Of a DNA stretch of 62,057 nucleotides, positions 21,826 through 33,653 are shown piece after piece. Source of the stretch: a virus (taxonomy: Duplodnaviria > Caudoviricetes). How positions within the stretch are numbered: position 1 is the stretch's first letter; the number at the start of each line of letters is the position of its first letter. The position numbers were made by a program, and so were the translations under genes. The notes below the pieces were generated by a model. The model did no database searches. It saw nothing but the letters and a program-made list of their open reading frames with translations, and was not told the DNA's origin. The DNA lies in IMG/VR virus record IMGVR_UViG_3300032267_000290, positions 1-62,057 of that record, one strand, 5' to 3'.

Positions 21826-22096
21826 CTAGCTCCTCTGATTTGGTTTGTTGTGGTTGTGTCTTGCCATCTTCATATGGCTTTTGCGCCCTGATGTCTAGAT
21901 AAACTAAACCTGATTTGGCGGTTGTTTTCCATCCTGATAATTCCACCTTAATGCAATTATTAATCACTTCATAGGTGTTTAAGTCCAATAAAACAGTGCC
22001 ACGATAATCGGGTGCTTTAGGGTTTGTCTTTGTTTTGTTAGCAAAGATCGCCCCTTTATTTGGTTGATCTTCAAATGGTTTTTTGTACATCATCAC
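21806..22096 (-). CDS. Single-stranded DNA-binding protein (DUF736-like)
   Basis: KAPDYRG...LSGW...KSG..YL; acidic DDDIEF tail; follows ERF. Confidence 0.7.
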   Translation of the reverse strand: MMMYKKPFEDQPNKGAIFANKTKTNPKAPDYRGTVLLDLNTYEVINNCIKVELSGWKTTAKSGLVYLDIRAQKPYEDGKTQPQQTKSEELDDDIEF

Positions 22097-22707
22097 TCCT
22101 TAAATTTAGATTTGTACTGTGCAAACGCAGATTGCACTTGTTTAAACAAATCAGGATTGCTGACTTTCATCTGATCAATGCCCGCCTGATTCTTTTTCCA
22201 AAAACTGCTAAGTTCCTTGAGGCTCTCGCACGTATCACCAAAGGTAATAAGTACTTCTGCAAGGGCATCTAAGTTCTGCTCAGGCTCTTGGGGCTTTGCC
22301 TTAACTTCAACAGGCTTTATTTCTACTGCTTGCGATCCTGTTACGGCATCCAATGCATCATGCTCAACGATGGCTAAAGCAGTAACGTACAGATACCTAC
22401 GCTGATACGTTTCTACTGCACCAATGTTTTGCACTTCGTGACATCCCTTTAACTGGGCAGAACCCATAGGTGAGGTAAACGTTACACTGCTACCGTCTTC
22501 GATGTCATACACCACCATTGTTGCAAGGTCTTGCGTAAACGAAATCACATCGCATAAGCCATGCTTTTTAAATAAACCTTGAATGGCGGGCAAAAAGTCA
22601 CCCAATTCAAAGTATTTATATCCCGCAAATTTGTTATGACCTGATTTGCTTAGTGGCATTGTTTGAAGTTCATTACGAACCTCGACTAGTTTTCTACAGA
22701 CTTTCAA
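22093..22707 (-). CDS. ERF-family ssDNA annealing protein
   Basis: KSGHNKFAGYKYFEL.D and QNIGAVETYQRRYLY..AL.I motifs; TTG start. Confidence 0.85.
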   Translation of the reverse strand: MKVCRKLVEVRNELQTMPLSKSGHNKFAGYKYFELGDFLPAIQGLFKKHGLCDVISFTQDLATMVVYDIEDGSSVTFTSPMGSAQLKGCHEVQNIGAVETYQRRYLYVTALAIVEHDALDAVTGSQAVEIKPVEVKAKPQEPEQNLDALAEVLITFGDTCESLKELSSFWKKNQAGIDQMKVSNPDLFKQVQSAFAQYKSKFKE

Positions 22708-23593
22708 TTAAACCCCCCTGCTCCTTTTGATTTTGATATTGACTACACCACTGCGATACTCCGCAGAAGTTCCCTGTACAACGTACTGCCTCACCCTTAC
22801 GGATTTCTATAAAGCCTTTGTCTTTCTCAGGCATTTCTTTTAACAAGGCATCTGCCTCGTCTTGTGTATCAAACACACGAATTGCAGTCTTACGACCATC
22901 CTTTTTGACCGCATACGTGGTTTGTCTAACCCAACGCTCCTCTTCAGTACATAAAGGCAACTCCTCGCCCCAATCAGCATTGACCTTGGAATCCCTGTGC
23001 ATCTCGACTCGTTCCTTGATAAAAGCCTCAGTGCGATCAAATGTCCACATTGGAATGTCAACTATTTGGATAGGTGCTTGTGGATAGTCAGGTTTGTTCT
23101 GAGCATCCCGCCTAGACCAATCTCGGATCAAGGCACAGATCTTCAAGCCTTTAACAGGCTTTTTCTTAACCCGCTCCACCAAGTACTTATAGATGTTCTG
23201 TTGTTGTTCCCACTCAGGCTTGTCGTTCATCAATGCCCATGCGGACGTGAACTTATAGTCTGTAATGGTGATGCCATCTGCCTCGTCCTTTTGGAGGTCA
23301 ATCGCCCCCGACAGGATGATGCCATTGACACCCGCAGAAAGACGTTCCTCATTGGTGTGACCCGATACCTCAGAACGCTCGGCTACAACGTGCAGAGCAG
23401 TGCCTAGGAGCATCCAAAGCATATCGGATACATCTTGCTCTATCTCTTCAAAATGCTTGCGTCTGAGCCTCTGTATGCGAGGCGGGGAGATGATTTCTGT
23501 GACTGAATAGTCTGACTGACCCTTGGTGTAGTAATCTCTACTGGCGAGTGCAACTAATGTTTCTGGTACATTGAATTTGTTTGTGATCTTCAT
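22694..23593 (-). CDS. PD-(D/E)XK (Cas4-like) exonuclease
   Basis: GTALH...E...SGAID...DYK motifs plus C-terminal Cys cluster. Confidence 0.8.
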   Translation of the reverse strand: MKITNKFNVPETLVALASRDYYTKGQSDYSVTEIISPPRIQRLRRKHFEEIEQDVSDMLWMLLGTALHVVAERSEVSGHTNEERLSAGVNGIILSGAIDLQKDEADGITITDYKFTSAWALMNDKPEWEQQQNIYKYLVERVKKKPVKGLKICALIRDWSRRDAQNKPDYPQAPIQIVDIPMWTFDRTEAFIKERVEMHRDSKVNADWGEELPLCTEEERWVRQTTYAVKKDGRKTAIRVFDTQDEADALLKEMPEKDKGFIEIRKGEAVRCTGNFCGVSQWCSQYQNQKEQGGLIESL

Positions 23594-23613
23594 TTAAGCC
23601 CTCCTATGACTAA

Positions 23614-23642
23614 ATACTAATACAACTATTTAACAAATGCAA
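23614..23642 (-). promoter_or_regulatory. Sigma70-type promoter for the leftward recombination operon
   Basis: TTGCAT-17 nt-TAGTAT on minus strand, ~20 nt before the exonuclease start. Confidence 0.65.
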
Positions 23643-24008
23643 ACACTATTTTTAAAAATATTTGGTGAACCCGCAAGTAAAGCTAACTCACGGAAAATGG
23701 TCTACGTGCGTGGAAAGCCAATGTTTATCAAGTCCGCCAAGGCGTTGTCGTATGCTAAAGCGTTTAAACAGCAATGCGTTATTTCCGACAGCGAAGTTTT
23801 TGAATGTGATGTGGCGGTAACCATTCGCATTTGGTACGCATCACGTAGACCTGACTTGGACGAGAGTTTAATACTGGATTTGCTACAAGAGGTGGCATAT
23901 AAGAATGACCGACAGGTCAAAGAGAAACACATATATTGGGGTTTGGATAAGGAGAACCCTAGGTGTGAGATAGAAGTAAGCGAAATAAAAAAAGCCACTA
24001 TCGCTTGA
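23637..24008 (+). CDS. rusA: RusA-like Holliday junction resolvase
   Basis: GEPASKAN...RRPDLD..ILDLLQ...YKNDRQV...K....NPRCEIEV. Confidence 0.8.
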   Translation: MQTLFLKIFGEPASKANSRKMVYVRGKPMFIKSAKALSYAKAFKQQCVISDSEVFECDVAVTIRIWYASRRPDLDESLILDLLQEVAYKNDRQVKEKHIYWGLDKENPRCEIEVSEIKKATIA

Positions 24009-24022
24009 AGAGTAGTGGCTTT
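23987..24022 (-). terminator. Intrinsic terminator (possibly bidirectional; overlaps the rusA stop)
   Basis: Minus strand AAAGCCACTA-12 nt-TAGTGGC followed by T7. Confidence 0.8.
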
Positions 24023-24084
24023 CCGACCTACTGGTCTATGACTAGGGGGCTTAATCGAAGTCATTGTTGAGCCGATGAATGCTC
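23987..24084 (-). ncRNA. Candidate ~98-nt sRNA with anti-RBS loop (UUAAGCCCCCU)
   Basis: Own promoter and intrinsic terminator; four hairpins; loop complementary to the RBS of ~10 phage genes. Confidence 0.65.
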
Positions 24085-24090
24085 AGGGGT

Positions 24091-24120
24091 ATATTACACC
24101 ATCTGAAAAATGTTTGTCAA
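24091..24120 (-). promoter_or_regulatory. Sigma70-type promoter of the candidate sRNA
   Basis: TTGACA-18 nt-TAATAT on minus strand. Confidence 0.65.
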
Positions 24121-24190
24121 ACAGTAACGTTCTCCTTGTTTTGTCATAATTTTCAAAGAAAATGGATGGATGTTCATGTGAGGTGAACTT

Positions 24191-24220
24191 TGGGGGAGAA
24201 TTTAACTCCCCCGTTTTTTT
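24191..24220 (+). terminator. Intrinsic terminator
   Basis: GGGGGAG-7 nt-CTCCCCC, then G and T7. Confidence 0.75.
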
Positions 24221-24357
24221 ACTCGGCATTAAGTAACTTAGCCCGTTTAAACGATCTACGAGCTGCTGCGTAGCCAGGCAAAAGCTCATCTCAGCCAGGC
24301 ACGATTCATTCGTTTAAACATATGATTAGGATTTACACGTACTTGCATCAAAACACC

Positions 24358-24386
24358 TTGCAATTTATTTTTTATAAATTTAATAT
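24358..24386 (+). promoter_or_regulatory. Sigma70-type promoter for HNH/primase-helicase
   Basis: TTGCAA-17 nt-TAATAT. Confidence 0.65.
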
Positions 24387-24622
24387 TGAAACCTGTTTCG
24401 TTTGACGATGAAAAACGGTAGGGACGAAACGGTATTGCTGATACTACGGTTAGTGCATTAGACATCAGACAGGGATGGCGAAGAAAGAATCCCTTGCACG
24501 AAAAGTCTTTCGGGTCAACCGATACCAATGTGGGCATAGGTTGTGAAGGCAGACCAGTTTAGGCTAGGTCTGCCCTCCCCAAGAGGGCAGTATGTATATA
24601 TATATAGAAAAAGATTATTTTT

Positions 24623-24898
24623 ATGCCATACGTTAACAAACCACGTCCTTATAAAAAGGAATACACCCAACAAAAGTCTAGAGATGAGCAACCATCTCGA
24701 AATGCAAGGGCGAGGGCTAGGTATGACATGGATAAGCGTGGGGTAGACAGAAAAGGAAAAGACATTGATCATGTCGTTCCACTCTCAAAAGGAGGTACTA
24801 ACTCAAGTAAAAATTTGAAATTGAAATCACCAAAATCAAATCGATCTTTTACACGGAATAGCGATCACACTGTTAAAATAAACAAACCAAAGAAGTAA
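24623..24898 (+). CDS. Small HNH endonuclease
   Basis: DIDHVVPLSKGGTN..KNL......NRS. Confidence 0.8.
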   Translation: MPYVNKPRPYKKEYTQQKSRDEQPSRNARARARYDMDKRGVDRKGKDIDHVVPLSKGGTNSSKNLKLKSPKSNRSFTRNSDHTVKINKPKK

Positions 24899-24918
24899 AA
24901 CTTAGAGGGGCTTAAAAT

Positions 24919-26604
24919 ATGAATGCGGTAGCGGAGTTTGTGTCTTCATTGCACGTGGATAATCATCTACGTACCATATGTCCGAATTGTTCTCAGGACA
25001 GAAAAAAATCTCATTTAAAAGAACTAAACATTGACCGCAAGGAAGATGCTTTGGTCTATTACTGTCAACACTGCCAAATCAGCGGGGCGGTTCCATTTAA
25101 AACAAAATCTTACAGACACTCGGAGAGTAATGTGCATCCCATTAGAAATTTAGAAACAACAAAACTAGAAAACAAACATTTTGACTTTTTAAAATCTCGT
25201 GGTATTTCTGCCAACACCGCAGAGAAGATGCAGTTGTTCCCTGCCGAAAAATACTTTCAGCGTTTAAACAAGAAGACAGACGCAATCGGCTTCCCATATT
25301 TCCGTAACGGGGTATACGTGTCTGCCAAGTATCGGAGCATCGAGGCGAAGGACTTTACGCAAGACGTGGGCGGTGCAAACGACTTTTTTGGCATAGACCA
25401 TATCGATACGACCAAGCCAGTAATCATTGTTGAGGGTGAGATTGATGCTTTGACTTTGCTTGAGTGTGGCTTGACCAACGTGGTTTCTGTGCCAAGTGGC
25501 GCACCGATGAAAGTCTCGGATGGAAAGGTGGATGCCTCGGAGGATAAGAAGTTTTCTTTTGTGTGGAATGCGTTTGACGTGCTTGAGAAAGTACCCCACG
25601 TCACGATAGCGACCGACACCGACACTGCGGGTCAGGCTTTGGCTGAGGAATTGGCGAGAAGGATTGGCAAAGACAAATGCAGAATCTCTCATTTCAAATA
25701 CAAAGATTTAAATGAGGCTTACCTTGCCGAGGGCAAGGAACTGGTCATAAAAATTATCGAGGAGGCAGAGCCGTACCCAGTTGCGGGTTTGTCTTCAGCC
25801 TCCAAGTTTGCTGACCGTTTAAACGACTTGTGGGGGAAGGGGACGGGGAAGGGCTTGTCTACTGGTTACTCCAACGTGGATGAAATCTATACGGTGGCTC
25901 AGGGTCAACTGACCATCGTAACTGGATACCCCTCATGCGGTAAGTCTAACTTTGTGGATCAAATGATGGTCAACTTGGGGAGGAATCACGATTGGAAGTT
26001 TGCGGTCTGCTCGTTTGAGAATCAGCCTGAGATTCATATCTCCCGCCTCATGGAGATCTACAAGGAAAAGCGGTTCTTTGATGGCACAAAGCGAATGACT
26101 CAGGACGAGAAGGACGAGGCATTTAAATGGGTGGAAGAGCATTTCCTCTTCTTAGATTCCGAGGGAGTAGAACCCGCCACGATTGAATCAATCTTGGAGC
26201 GGGCAAAGGTTGCGGTGGTTCGCATGGGAATCCGAGGTCTTGTTATCGATCCTTACAACTACATCGACAACAAAGGCGGTCAGGCAGAGACAGAATTTAT
26301 ATCGGGGATGTTGACCCGCATACAAGCGTTTGCTAAGGCTTATGGGGTTCATGTATGGTTCGTAGCCCATCCAAGCAAAATAACACGCTCAGGGATGGAT
26401 TTACCACGTCCTGATGGTATGGCTATATCAGGATCTATGGCATGGTGGGCAAAGGCAGACTGCGGGATCACAGTGCATCGCACCAAGGAGAACGTAGAGA
26501 TTGCGGTTTGGAAGTGTCGCTATCGGTGGGTAGGTACTCAAGGGGAAACTGCTTTAGGGTACGACAAGGTCACAGGTACGTACTTTGAACAAGAGGCATT
26601 CTAG
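24919..26604 (+). CDS. T7 gp4/Twinkle-like primase-helicase
   Basis: CPNC..CQHC zinc finger, TOPRIM EGEID and DTD, SF4 helicase GYPSCGKS, VIDPY, VAHP. Confidence 0.92.
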   Translation: MNAVAEFVSSLHVDNHLRTICPNCSQDRKKSHLKELNIDRKEDALVYYCQHCQISGAVPFKTKSYRHSESNVHPIRNLETTKLENKHFDFLKSRGISANTAEKMQLFPAEKYFQRLNKKTDAIGFPYFRNGVYVSAKYRSIEAKDFTQDVGGANDFFGIDHIDTTKPVIIVEGEIDALTLLECGLTNVVSVPSGAPMKVSDGKVDASEDKKFSFVWNAFDVLEKVPHVTIATDTDTAGQALAEELARRIGKDKCRISHFKYKDLNEAYLAEGKELVIKIIEEAEPYPVAGLSSASKFADRLNDLWGKGTGKGLSTGYSNVDEIYTVAQGQLTIVTGYPSCGKSNFVDQMMVNLGRNHDWKFAVCSFENQPEIHISRLMEIYKEKRFFDGTKRMTQDEKDEAFKWVEEHFLFLDSEGVEPATIESILERAKVAVVRMGIRGLVIDPYNYIDNKGGQAETEFISGMLTRIQAFAKAYGVHVWFVAHPSKITRSGMDLPRPDGMAISGSMAWWAKADCGITVHRTKENVEIAVWKCRYRWVGTQGETALGYDKVTGTYFEQEAF

Positions 26605-27524: not shown

Positions 27525-27610
27525 ACTGCACCATGTATTAAATTGGCAACGAATGCAATTAACATTAAGTACAACGCAATGTCAAATAGGCGGTCAACGA
27601 AATGTTTCAT
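27521..27610 (-). CDS. 29-aa membrane peptide
   Basis: MKHFVDRLFDIALYLMLIAFVANLIHGAV; RBS GGAGGGCTTA. Confidence 0.55.
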   Translation of the reverse strand: MKHFVDRLFDIALYLMLIAFVANLIHGAV

Positions 27611-27611
27611 A

Positions 27612-27827
27612 CTAAGCCCTCCAAGATGCATCATCGATGCGTTGTGCCTCAGCATCATCCTCGTCCTCGTCAAGATCTGCTAAGTACTCAGGTCTCGCAT
27701 CTTTAAAAAACGTAACAATGAAATTTCCATCAGCATCCCAATCCATTTTCCAATCGGCATGACCAAATTCAAGATTAGAAAATTCGTCCAACAAATCTGT
27801 ATTACAAGAAAAATGATGGCTACGCAT
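27612..27827 (-). CDS. Highly acidic small protein
   Basis: RBS AGGGGGGCTTA; Asp/Glu-rich. Confidence 0.65.
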   Translation of the reverse strand: MRSHHFSCNTDLLDEFSNLEFGHADWKMDWDADGNFIVTFFKDARPEYLADLDEDEDDAEAQRIDDASWRA

Positions 27828-27842
27828 AATAAGCCCCCCTAT

Positions 27843-27998: not shown

Positions 27999-28019
27999 GT
28001 AAGCCCCCTGTTTAAACGG

Positions 28020-31587: not shown

Positions 31588-31605
31588 TTTAAGCCCCTAT
31601 AAAAA

Positions 31606-32275: not shown

Positions 32276-32337
32276 AAGCCCTCCTGTTAAAAGTTATAAG
32301 GCACATCCCTATGCCCCAAAGGGCATAAGGATAGGTC

Positions 32338-32592: not shown

Positions 32593-32605
32593 AAAGCCCC
32601 CTTGG

Positions 32606-32812: not shown

Positions 32813-33653
32813 AAAAGCCTCCTAAGTAAGATGCAAGATCGCATCCTCTAGCACCCTCCTCCAAGGATGCTATGAGATGTTATCTAGTGGATCGCTCCAC
32901 AACTTTTGGCACTCGCTGACGTTGTCACCGTCAGGTCAAAGCGGTCTCGGTGCTATCTCGTTCGCCACAATGGCTACTAGCCTTTCCCGTACAGTTATAG
33001 ACTTGATACGTCTCGCCCTTTGTTTTAGATCGATAGGCAATTAATACATTTCAATCGATCACCGCATTTATTTATTCACGCTCTCGGCTCGCACGTGTCG
33101 GTGGTTTCTCACCGATTTACTACAACTGCAACAACAGACTGAATGTTAGCACGAATGTTTAAACAGGTGTTAGCATCATGTTGTTAATCCCACACAGTTT
33201 ACTCAGGTATTACCCTCTATATAAGACTATCTATCGCCCAGTTTTAGGTCTTATACAAGACCCAAAAAACCCTCCCCGCCAAGCCTTGTTCTATAAGGGT
33301 GAGGCTCACCATTGAACGATCGGATGCTAGCACACCCACTTGCTCCAACAATAGCATTAACGTCTCCTAGACCCCTCTAATGCGGTTTAAACCGTATGTA
33401 TGGATATACAGTACTGAGCGGTCTCGGTCACAACTGGGATCAATTTTAGAAATCGGGTGGCTCATCACGTGAGCCTTAGCACGAAGTGCGACAGTCAAAT
33501 AAATGTGTGGTGAATGATTGATGACTGATAGAGATAGTAGAGGCTCATGCAGTGAGCCAGTGACAGGTGAAATAGAGAACACTCAGGAAACGATATTGAC
33601 ATCAGAATGGAACAAGCTCATCATATGAGCCAGTGATCGAAGTTTAAACGAGG

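Follow-up and report, generated by a model that had tools for sequence, protein, structure and literature searches.

What is encoded in the gap beyond the RusA gene of an uncultured freshwater phage, and how does it relate to a motif that recurs at the start of replication and recombination genes? The phage is a whole genome of 62,057 bp, about 99% complete (IMG/VR record IMGVR_UViG_3300032267_000290), and this entire stretch is called the window in what follows. An initial annotation had placed in the gap a minus-strand RNA, one loop of which would pair with an extended ribosome-binding site (RBS) shared by early and replication genes, and this core claim is supported by the comparative tests reported below. 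The reading preferred here, to which a rough probability of 0.72 is given, is that of a stand-alone gene for a trans-acting RNA that pairs with early RBSs bearing a common tag and keeps ribosomes off them as a group. To judge from the joint change of loop and sites, this RNA would very probably switch off the translation of the replication and recombination genes together.

The gene is composed in the window of the following elements, in which the seed loop combines a core complementary to the Shine-Dalgarno (SD) sequence with an extension:

24091-24120, minus strand: promoter, with the -35 box TTGACA at 24120-24115, an 18-nt spacer and the -10 box TAATAT at 24096-24091.
23987-24084, minus strand: small RNA of about 98 nt, with a predicted start near 24084 and an end in the U-run 23993-23987.
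24069-24084, minus strand: hairpin 1 (GAGC/GCUC), nt 1-16 of the RNA, a lineage-specific 5' addition.
24038-24064, minus strand: hairpin 2, nt 21-47, with a 6-bp stem (AUGACU/AGUCAU) that encloses the seed loop.
24044-24058, minus strand: seed loop UCGAUUAAGCCCCCU, 15 nt, an anti-SD core with a variable 5' extension.
24025-24036, minus strand: hairpin 3 (GACC AGUA GGUC), nt 49-60, followed by GG(A/U)AA.
23987-24024, minus strand: Rho-independent terminator with U7, long and GC-rich, with the RusA stop codon in its loop.

The annotated promoter TTGACA-18-TAATAT was found in place; it matches at 10 of 12 positions and is the sole minus-strand sigma-70-like site found in 23400-25000. The three hairpins and the U7 run described at the outset are likewise all present in the fold of the window RNA, but hairpin 1 is not conserved in relatives. 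This fold has a minimum free energy of -30.4 kcal/mol, compared with -18.4 +/- 2.95 kcal/mol for 200 shuffled sequences (z = -4.07), none of which is as good, and the U-run is found on the minus strand only. The C-rich motif is borne by hairpin 2 alone, in a loop whose 15 bases have unpaired probabilities of 0.49-1.0, at least 0.9 for 13 of them. Its core reads GCCCCC in the window phage and GCCUCC in most relatives, and the 5' extension in the window is UUAA. Rfam cmscan yielded no family matching the RNA, whether run on the window at gathering scores, on 23800-24700 at E <= 10 or on 17 related loci.

The target genes carry an SD sequence with a private tag, GGGGGCUUAA, located 0-4 nt before their start codons. 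Targets in the window were scored on home-made, crude calls of open reading frames (ORFs), 85 genes in all, with 34 in the early blocks and 51 in the two late blocks. A loop duplex of -16 kcal/mol or lower is predicted at the start regions of 7 of the 34 early genes and of none of the 51 late genes; the tag is thus not equally common before late genes, a point on which the initial annotation had staked its proposal. The RBS matches that it had listed, for the ERF, exo, primase-helicase and ATPase genes and for the ORFs starting at 27610, 27827, 27998, 32275, 32592 and 32812, were all verified and are distributed as follows:

23594-23606, minus strand: RBS UAGGAGGGCUUAA of exo (PD-(D/E)XK exonuclease, Pfam PDDEXK_1), start 23593, duplex of -17.1 kcal/mol.
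22708-22718, minus strand: RBS GGGGGGUUUAA of the ERF recombinase gene (Pfam ERF), start 22707, -22.9 kcal/mol with 15 contiguous pairs including G-U.
24905-24915, plus strand: RBS GAGGGGCUUAA of the primase-helicase gene, start 24919, -16.0 kcal/mol with 9 contiguous pairs.
31588-31598, minus strand: RBS AGGGGCUUAA of the AAA_5/CbbQ_C ATPase gene (assigned by Pfam), start 31587, -17.3 kcal/mol.
27830-27839, minus strand: RBS GGGGGGCUUA of a small ORF, start 27827, -19.0 kcal/mol with 10 contiguous pairs.
28000-28009, minus strand: RBS AGGGGGCUUA of a small ORF, start 27998, 10/10 match, -19.3 kcal/mol.
32593-32601, minus strand: RBS GGGGGCUUU of an ORF, start 32592, -17.5 kcal/mol with 9 contiguous pairs.
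27613-27622, minus strand: weaker tag copy GGAGGGCUUA before the ATG at 27610 of a 29-codon ORF, read from the sequence.
32276-32284: weaker tag copy GGAGGGCUU, start 32275.
32813-32822: weaker tag copy GGAGGCUUUU, start 32812, -10.9 kcal/mol.

The exact 8-mer GGGGCTTA is present in five copies, against 1.6 +/- 1.25 expected, and one of 100 shuffles reaches five. One copy is the RNA gene and each of the other four abuts a start codon on the coding strand. Enrichment of the tag 7-mers in the window is about 2-fold.

Two ordinary explanations of the motif were tried and rejected. The loop sequence could be the RBS of a plus-strand gene, but 24008-24543 holds no plus-strand ORF of at least 40 codons and the relatives have no conserved start codon after the motif. 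Reading GCTTAA as a TAA stop codon that overlaps the next ATG fails since the tag switches to CTAA, CTCA or CCAA along with the loop.

The relatives available in IMG/VR number 172 for the primase and 298 for RusA, and the best 80 of each were used as loci. In most of them the reverse complement of the sequence after RusA displays, in spite of full sequence divergence, a promoter, a hairpin enclosing ..GAUUAAGCCUCC.., a short hairpin and a terminator. A covariance model (R1) built from nine copies with a hand-structured seed has matches at E <= 0.001 in 60 of the 80 RusA loci, each of them on the other strand from RusA and just beyond its stop codon. A second model (R2), built from 47 copies, matches 56 of the 80 primase loci and the window, with one copy each. 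The window match at 23987-24064 scores 88.3 bits with R1 and 76.1 bits with R2 and is the single copy in the 62-kb genome. More than 50 distinct copies are known from phages of 40-56% GC, all of them without an ORF.

The stems covary. Among 45 distinct rows (797 cells), 95.2% of cells hold standard pairs, compared with 76.8% in shuffled and 31-51% in slid controls, in an alignment that was fitted to the model structure, which favours pairing; compensatory changes are found in 14 of 18 pairs and none of 500 shuffles reaches any of these measures. Both the slid controls and the variety of pair types within columns argue for a real pairing signal. In hairpin 2 all five modelled pairs have compensatory changes, with 4-6 pair types each, and 82% of cells pair. 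All cells pair in hairpin 3, where two of four pairs have compensatory changes and the variants include GAUC/GAUC, GAGCC/GGCUC and CCAC/GUGG, and again in the terminator helix, with compensatory changes in seven of nine pairs. The loop has the invariant columns G, C, C, -, C, C in 38 sequences. RNAalifold on a MAFFT alignment of 38 sequences recovered hairpin 3 only, because that alignment is not structure-aware. Cells with G-U (28) outnumber those with A-C (12), which favours the minus strand as the transcribed one.

The promoter is kept along with the structure. A site with at least 9 of 12 matches and a -10 box ending 5-11 nt before the model start precedes 39 of 46 distinct copies, compared with 2.6% of 5000 random windows, and in the exceptions, the window among them, promoter and hairpin 2 are separated by an additional 5' hairpin. 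Hairpin 1 is absent from the closest relatives, in which the -10 box leads directly to hairpin 2, and a different extra 5' hairpin occurs in another lineage (L139, L142, L145 and L152). The 5' end of the RNA is, by this comparison of copies, plastic. The palindrome AACGTT (often GAACGTTC; 24126-24131 in the window) occurs close to the RNA promoter, in the 80 nt that precede the RNA, for 21 of 47 distinct copies, compared with 2.8% of random 80-nt windows. It is mostly located 45-53 nt before the model start and in other copies inside the promoter spacer, and is a candidate operator that would make synthesis of the RNA regulated.

The decisive evidence is that loop and tag vary together. The initial annotation had asked for conservation and covariation of the loop in relatives; the core proved invariant and the extension covaries with the RBS tags. 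The classes found at the primase start are listed below, hyphens separating extension from core in the loop and the SD part from the tag proper:

Loop ..UUAA-GCCUCC (including CUAA and AUAA): primase tag GGAGGC-UUA, 25 rows.
Loop ..UUAA/CUAA-GCCCCC (the group of the window): primase tag (A)GGGGC-UUA, 7 rows.
Loop ..UUA-GCCUCC: primase tag GGAGGC-UAA or UAU, 20 rows.
Loop ..UGA-GCCUCC: primase tag GGAGGC-UCA, 3 rows, one of them a 12-nt perfect match.
Loop ..UUG-GCCUCC: primase tag GGAGGC-CAA, 1 row.

Of 57 RNA-bearing loci, 56 show an exact complement of their loop as the tag at the start of the primase gene. Both RNA and primase tag are missing from twelve loci whose upstream sequence is complete, and no locus has the tag without the RNA. 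The correspondence extends beyond the primase: when GGRGGC sites before ORFs are de-duplicated, the commonest next triplet is the complement of the phage's own loop, TTA for ..TAA loops (26 of 61, with TAA in 4), TAA for ..TTA loops (20 of 59) and, for the rarer loop classes, TCA (3 of 7), TTT (2 of 2) and CAA (2 of 2).

Six genomes, those of the window and of five complete relatives, were compared for start regions with at least 9 contiguous Watson-Crick matches to their own loop. Such regions number 5 of 88, 4 of 91, 4 of 92, 5 of 98, 2 of 91 and 3 of 102, compared with 0.1-0.2% of random windows, and loops of other classes score 0-2, except among three genomes of one class. The sum over the six genomes is 23, against 4.3 +/- 2.3 when the extension is shuffled and the core kept (none of 500 shuffles as high). 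These matches fall on orthologues of exo and primase and of the ATPase gene and gene 31606; the phage's own tag is found at the exo orthologues of G003 and G005 and at the ATPase orthologues of G001, G002, G003 and G005. These complete or near-complete relatives (G001-G005) have genomes of 56-64 kb with 39.8-55.6% GC and share the RNA, RusA, exo and primase. The phage family evidently spans hosts of differing base composition.

The proposed sequence of events is the following. Host RNA polymerase would transcribe an RNA of about 75-100 nt from its own strong, constitutive-type sigma-70 promoter, and the intrinsic terminator would end the transcript. Hairpin 2 would then display the loop with its anti-SD core and phage-specific 5' extension to an early set (exo, ERF, primase-helicase, the AAA ATPase and several small ORFs) whose start regions bear the exact complement, SD plus private tag. 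Pairing over 9-15 nt would cover the SD and, by analogy with SD-occluding small RNAs (sRNAs), exclude the 30S subunit from the early mRNAs. The tag C-U-U-A-A does not pair with what are presumably the 16S rRNA bases 5' of CCUCC. Since the tag adds nothing to pairing with this presumed 16S tail, it seems to be an address read by the RNA and not by the ribosome.

Several observations weigh against this scheme. In the window, shuffling the extension with the core kept still leaves 5.7 +/- 1.4 genes at -16 kcal/mol or lower, compared with 8 observed; 22 of 200 shuffles are as high by energy, and results are similar for the five relatives. Pairing of the core with any G-rich SD accordingly accounts for much of the binding energy predicted, and the extension contributes specificity rather than most of the binding energy. 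One locus, L037, carries the RNA without a tag at the primase, the exo site of G001 does not follow the G001 loop, and G004 has only 1-2 matching genes. Loop, primase, exo and the other targets belong to one early module, so that many rows are not independent and joint inheritance through module exchange raises the row counts. The loop and tag traits change only about 5-6 times on a quick primase tree; four independent pairs for presence or absence give 3-4 agreements and none in the opposite direction (p = 0.125), and 2-3 independent pairs for the AA/TA class change in the predicted direction (p = 0.5), both comparisons being under-powered. Five RNA libraries contain the phage, all in the form of assembled contigs without strand information; those of four, which cover pieces of the early region, end within the RNA gene and leave strand, ends and level of expression unreadable. 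They include a 2,066-nt contig of X1, which starts within the loop region of the RNA gene of a close relative and extends to the primase, and a 200-nt contig of X5 corresponding to 23848-24050; DNA carry-over is possible and nothing is drawn from them.

The arrangement of the genes around the RNA bears on the alternative that survives best:

23637-24008, plus strand: RusA Holliday-junction resolvase gene (Pfam RusA, E = 1.6e-7, profile positions 3-123 of 124).

RusA, with which the RNA gene is convergent in the window, is the syntenic anchor of the small RNA gene, found directly past the RusA stop codon in 60 of 80 RusA loci. The kept order is exo leftward, RusA rightward and the small RNA leftward, then the Betaproteobacteria-1 RNA, HNH and primase-helicase rightward. 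Exo lies on the strand opposite to RusA in all 80 RusA loci, its amino terminus being encoded 42-80 nt from the RusA start in most. In the window the start codons of the leftward exo and the rightward RusA are 43 nt apart (23594-23636), and RusA has no SD sequence. A spacing of about 43 nt leaves no room for two promoters, and transcripts reading through from the small RNA promoter may supply the exo-ERF operon.

From this follows the proposal that the RNA is the terminated leader, or attenuator, of the leftward exo-ERF operon, with read-through across antisense RusA giving the exo mRNA and with the anti-SD loop acting both in trans and, on its own transcript, in cis. Precedents are c4 of phage P1 and the CI RNA of P4, which arise from the operon that they control. 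The proposal is nonetheless unlikely. It draws on the divergent exo and RusA starts, about 43 nt apart in most of the 80 loci without room for an exo promoter, and on the promoter at 24120 being the only minus-strand sigma-70-like site in 23400-25000. The terminator, however, is long, GC-rich, followed by U7 and fully conserved, which suggests efficient stops; read-through must cross 370 nt of antisense RusA; and promoters of another type, or weak ones, are possible within RusA. A leader origin would in any case alter where the RNA comes from and not its pairing.

A very unlikely explanation is that the C-rich loop is a general anti-SD decoy, which would act on messengers of the host (host shut-off) or on strong SDs of any kind, and that early genes of the phage match it only through their strong G-rich SDs. 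It is in keeping with the survival of most strong predicted duplexes when the extension is shuffled, and with GCC-CC as the invariant part of the RNA. It does not account for an extension that exactly complements the spacer tag in its own phage and changes together with this tag from lineage to lineage (TTAA/TTA/TGA/TTG), nor for contiguous matches of at least 9 nt being five times commoner than with a shuffled extension. The tag also has no ribosomal explanation, as it does not pair with the 16S tail taken here as the host's.

Highly improbable, too, is that the shared motif is a binding site for a protein, whether a translational repressor of the RegA kind or a DNA-binding protein, in which case the copy located between RusA and primase would be a further site, for example in the plus-strand RusA mRNA's 3' untranslated region (UTR). 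On the plus strand the locus does read as a further tag copy, the RusA mRNA should cross the motif to judge by the plus-strand terminator at 24191-24220, and a changed protein specificity would also shift all copies together. Such a site leaves unexplained the minus-strand promoter at fixed distance (39 of 46), the minus-strand U-run and the ratio of G-U to A-C cells (28 to 12); it gives no reason for covarying stems and two further conserved hairpins at one copy only, and no candidate protein was identified. A chance arrangement or relic, that is a decayed gene start (orphan RBS cassette) beside an ordinary bidirectional terminator, would suit the modest statistics of the window taken by itself (7-mers about 2-fold, 8-mer 5 versus 1.6 expected) but is scarcely credible for an element kept in more than 50 distinct sequences of 40-56% GC, without an ORF and with covarying stems and a promoter. 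The covariance-model matches and the joint variation of loop and tag already contradict it.

Three minus-strand ORFs at 24083-24289, 24286-24537 and 24515-24772, arranged head-to-tail and 68-85 codons long, resemble a small operon upstream of the RNA. They have tblastn matches in 9, 30 and 35 of 80 loci, often with split frames, and overlap the plus-strand terminator at 24191-24220, an Rfam RNA and the HNH gene, a plus-strand gene conserved in 69 of 80 loci. By these comparisons they are probably not genes. As they are not conserved as proteins, the small RNA stands alone in a non-coding gap.

The plus-strand intrinsic terminator at 24191-24220, with an 8-bp GC-rich stem followed by T7, lies about 190 nt beyond the RusA stop codon. 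A RusA mRNA that stops there would hold the full complement of the small RNA in its 3' UTR, which could serve as a cis-antisense partner or sponge of the small RNA. Convergent transcription of RusA could also interfere with the small RNA promoter.

The Rfam RNA is a neighbour of the locus:

24394-24515, plus strand: Betaproteobacteria-1 RNA (RF02932, 72.8 bits), between the small RNA gene and HNH/primase, on the primase strand.

It was found in 14 of the 17 related loci scanned (L002, L008, L014, L015, L019, L020, L024, L026, L030, L037, L045, L052, L061 and L066), about 400-520 nt upstream of the primase (about 1,000 nt in L052). Two of these loci, L020 and L045, have the Betaproteobacteria-1 RNA and lack the small RNA. 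Its presence in 14 of 17 loci makes it seem a leader, an origin or an HNH-associated element of this phage family; a literature search returned no description of the Betaproteobacteria-1 motif in phages.

Copies outside the IMG/VR relatives were sought in two ways. Distant blastn of 22000-26000 against public phage records gave two short ERF matches only. Genome contigs were scanned with a pattern of loop and hairpin 3 that fits one sub-family only (23 viral contigs), and nine stretches were obtained, of which one is a true copy by the model; the remaining eight are chance matches in high-GC genomes. The true copy (L162, 246-317, plus strand, 76.4 bits) is perfect and lies on a 2.9-kb contig from a sediment bin labelled 'uncultured archaeon', which is most likely a mis-binned phage fragment. 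This one-sub-family scan of genome contigs found no prophage copy and pointed to no host.

The closest known system is c4 of phages P1 and P7 (immI), a phage RNA of about 77 nt whose loops, in the account given in PMC12197685, pair around the RBS of an mRNA and block its translation. According to the same account, loop and target differ together between P1 and P7, leading to heteroimmunity (PMC12197685). The small RNA described here shares with c4 a loop that is complementary to a phage RBS and covaries with it between related phages, but is not a member of the c4 family: no match to the C4 model was found in the window, in 23800-24700 at E <= 10 or in 17 related loci. The c4 RNA (Rfam RF01695) is encoded upstream of a single target operon, is processed from the transcript of that operon and recognizes its antirepressor target with two loops. 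The small RNA has instead a single seed loop with a promoter and a terminator of its own, although an origin as leader of the exo operon is a less likely alternative, and addresses about 7-10 dispersed genes on both strands, including replication and recombination genes.

Staphylococcus aureus RNAIII and RsaE/RoxS repress several mRNAs by pairing of a C-rich loop motif with their G-rich SDs. These sRNAs of Firmicutes are encoded in the chromosome and control host regulons; the C-rich motif usually recurs in several of their loops, and they need no more than the SD itself. The small RNA resembles them by a C-rich motif that is unpaired in a hairpin loop and complementary to SDs, and differs by being viral, by its single loop, by a private extension that co-evolves with the targets and by the lack of an Rfam match. 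With trans-acting sRNAs in general it shares a short non-coding gene bounded by a promoter and a Rho-independent terminator, known in this case from sequence, and a conserved single-stranded seed with covarying complementarity to several mRNAs.

Phage T4 provides the RegB endoribonuclease and the RegA translational repressor, presented in PMC3014915 as phage factors acting on early mRNAs. The small RNA would be a functional analogue of these that recognizes its targets by RNA-RNA pairing, with no homology implied. RegB and RegA are proteins that recognize GGAG or AU-rich sites and shut down early mRNAs at their RBSs. Another precedent is found in CopA of plasmid R1 and RNAI of ColE1-type plasmids, constitutive short hairpin RNAs that follow gene dosage and limit replication by loop-initiated pairing. 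These are cis-encoded and fully complementary to a single target, unlike the small RNA, which is trans-encoded and has a 9-15-nt seed for many targets.

The RNA may serve an early-to-late switch, dosage control or immunity, and the preferred purpose is a shut-off driven by gene dosage, or a negative feedback, of the replication and recombination proteins during infection. A dosage-coupled shut-off is favoured on two grounds: the short RNA gene increases in dose as replication proceeds, and what the RNA targets are the replication and recombination proteins. A more tentative idea, doubtful at present, is that the loop and tag classes (UUAA, UUA, UGA and UUG, with CCUCC or CCCCC) are translational immunity groups among co-circulating freshwater phages. 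A phage resident in a cell would shut down replication and recombination genes in a related newcomer of its own class, and escape would drive the coordinated re-tagging of the whole gene set. Several discrete loop/tag classes are what is expected if related phages compete in the same cells, as in P1/P7 heteroimmunity.

Regulation of dormancy may also be considered. No integrase or CI family was found among 20 early-region proteins scanned against PHROGs, a scan that was not exhaustive, and the dormancy idea has this result as its sole basis. Direct terminal repeats are present in two of the five relatives G001-G005. Together with the lack of integrase and CI matches and of a prophage copy, these repeats lean towards a lytic phage.

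Literature searches on anti-SD and early-gene small RNAs of phages found no description of this RNA. To our knowledge, regulation of a phage's own genes by trans-acting RNA comprises a handful of classical cases with a single target each (c4, sar, OOP and P4 CI). In the present case a single RNA would reach an entire functional set of genes by way of a private tag added to the SD, and the compensatory-mutation experiment is already provided by natural variation in more than 50 uncultured phages. The finding, if true, would define a new Rfam-type RNA family, give a simple rule for reading early and late classes and regulons from the sequence of uncultured phages, and offer naturally orthogonal pairs of sRNA and RBS for synthetic control of translation. 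It would also provide a testable hypothesis on how lytic phages time or limit their replication, or exclude relatives, without protein repressors. Were the exclusion reading to hold, the loops and tags would form an RNA-based, regulon-wide code of superinfection exclusion in phages without a recognizable repressor or integrase, a so far undescribed layer of phage gene control.

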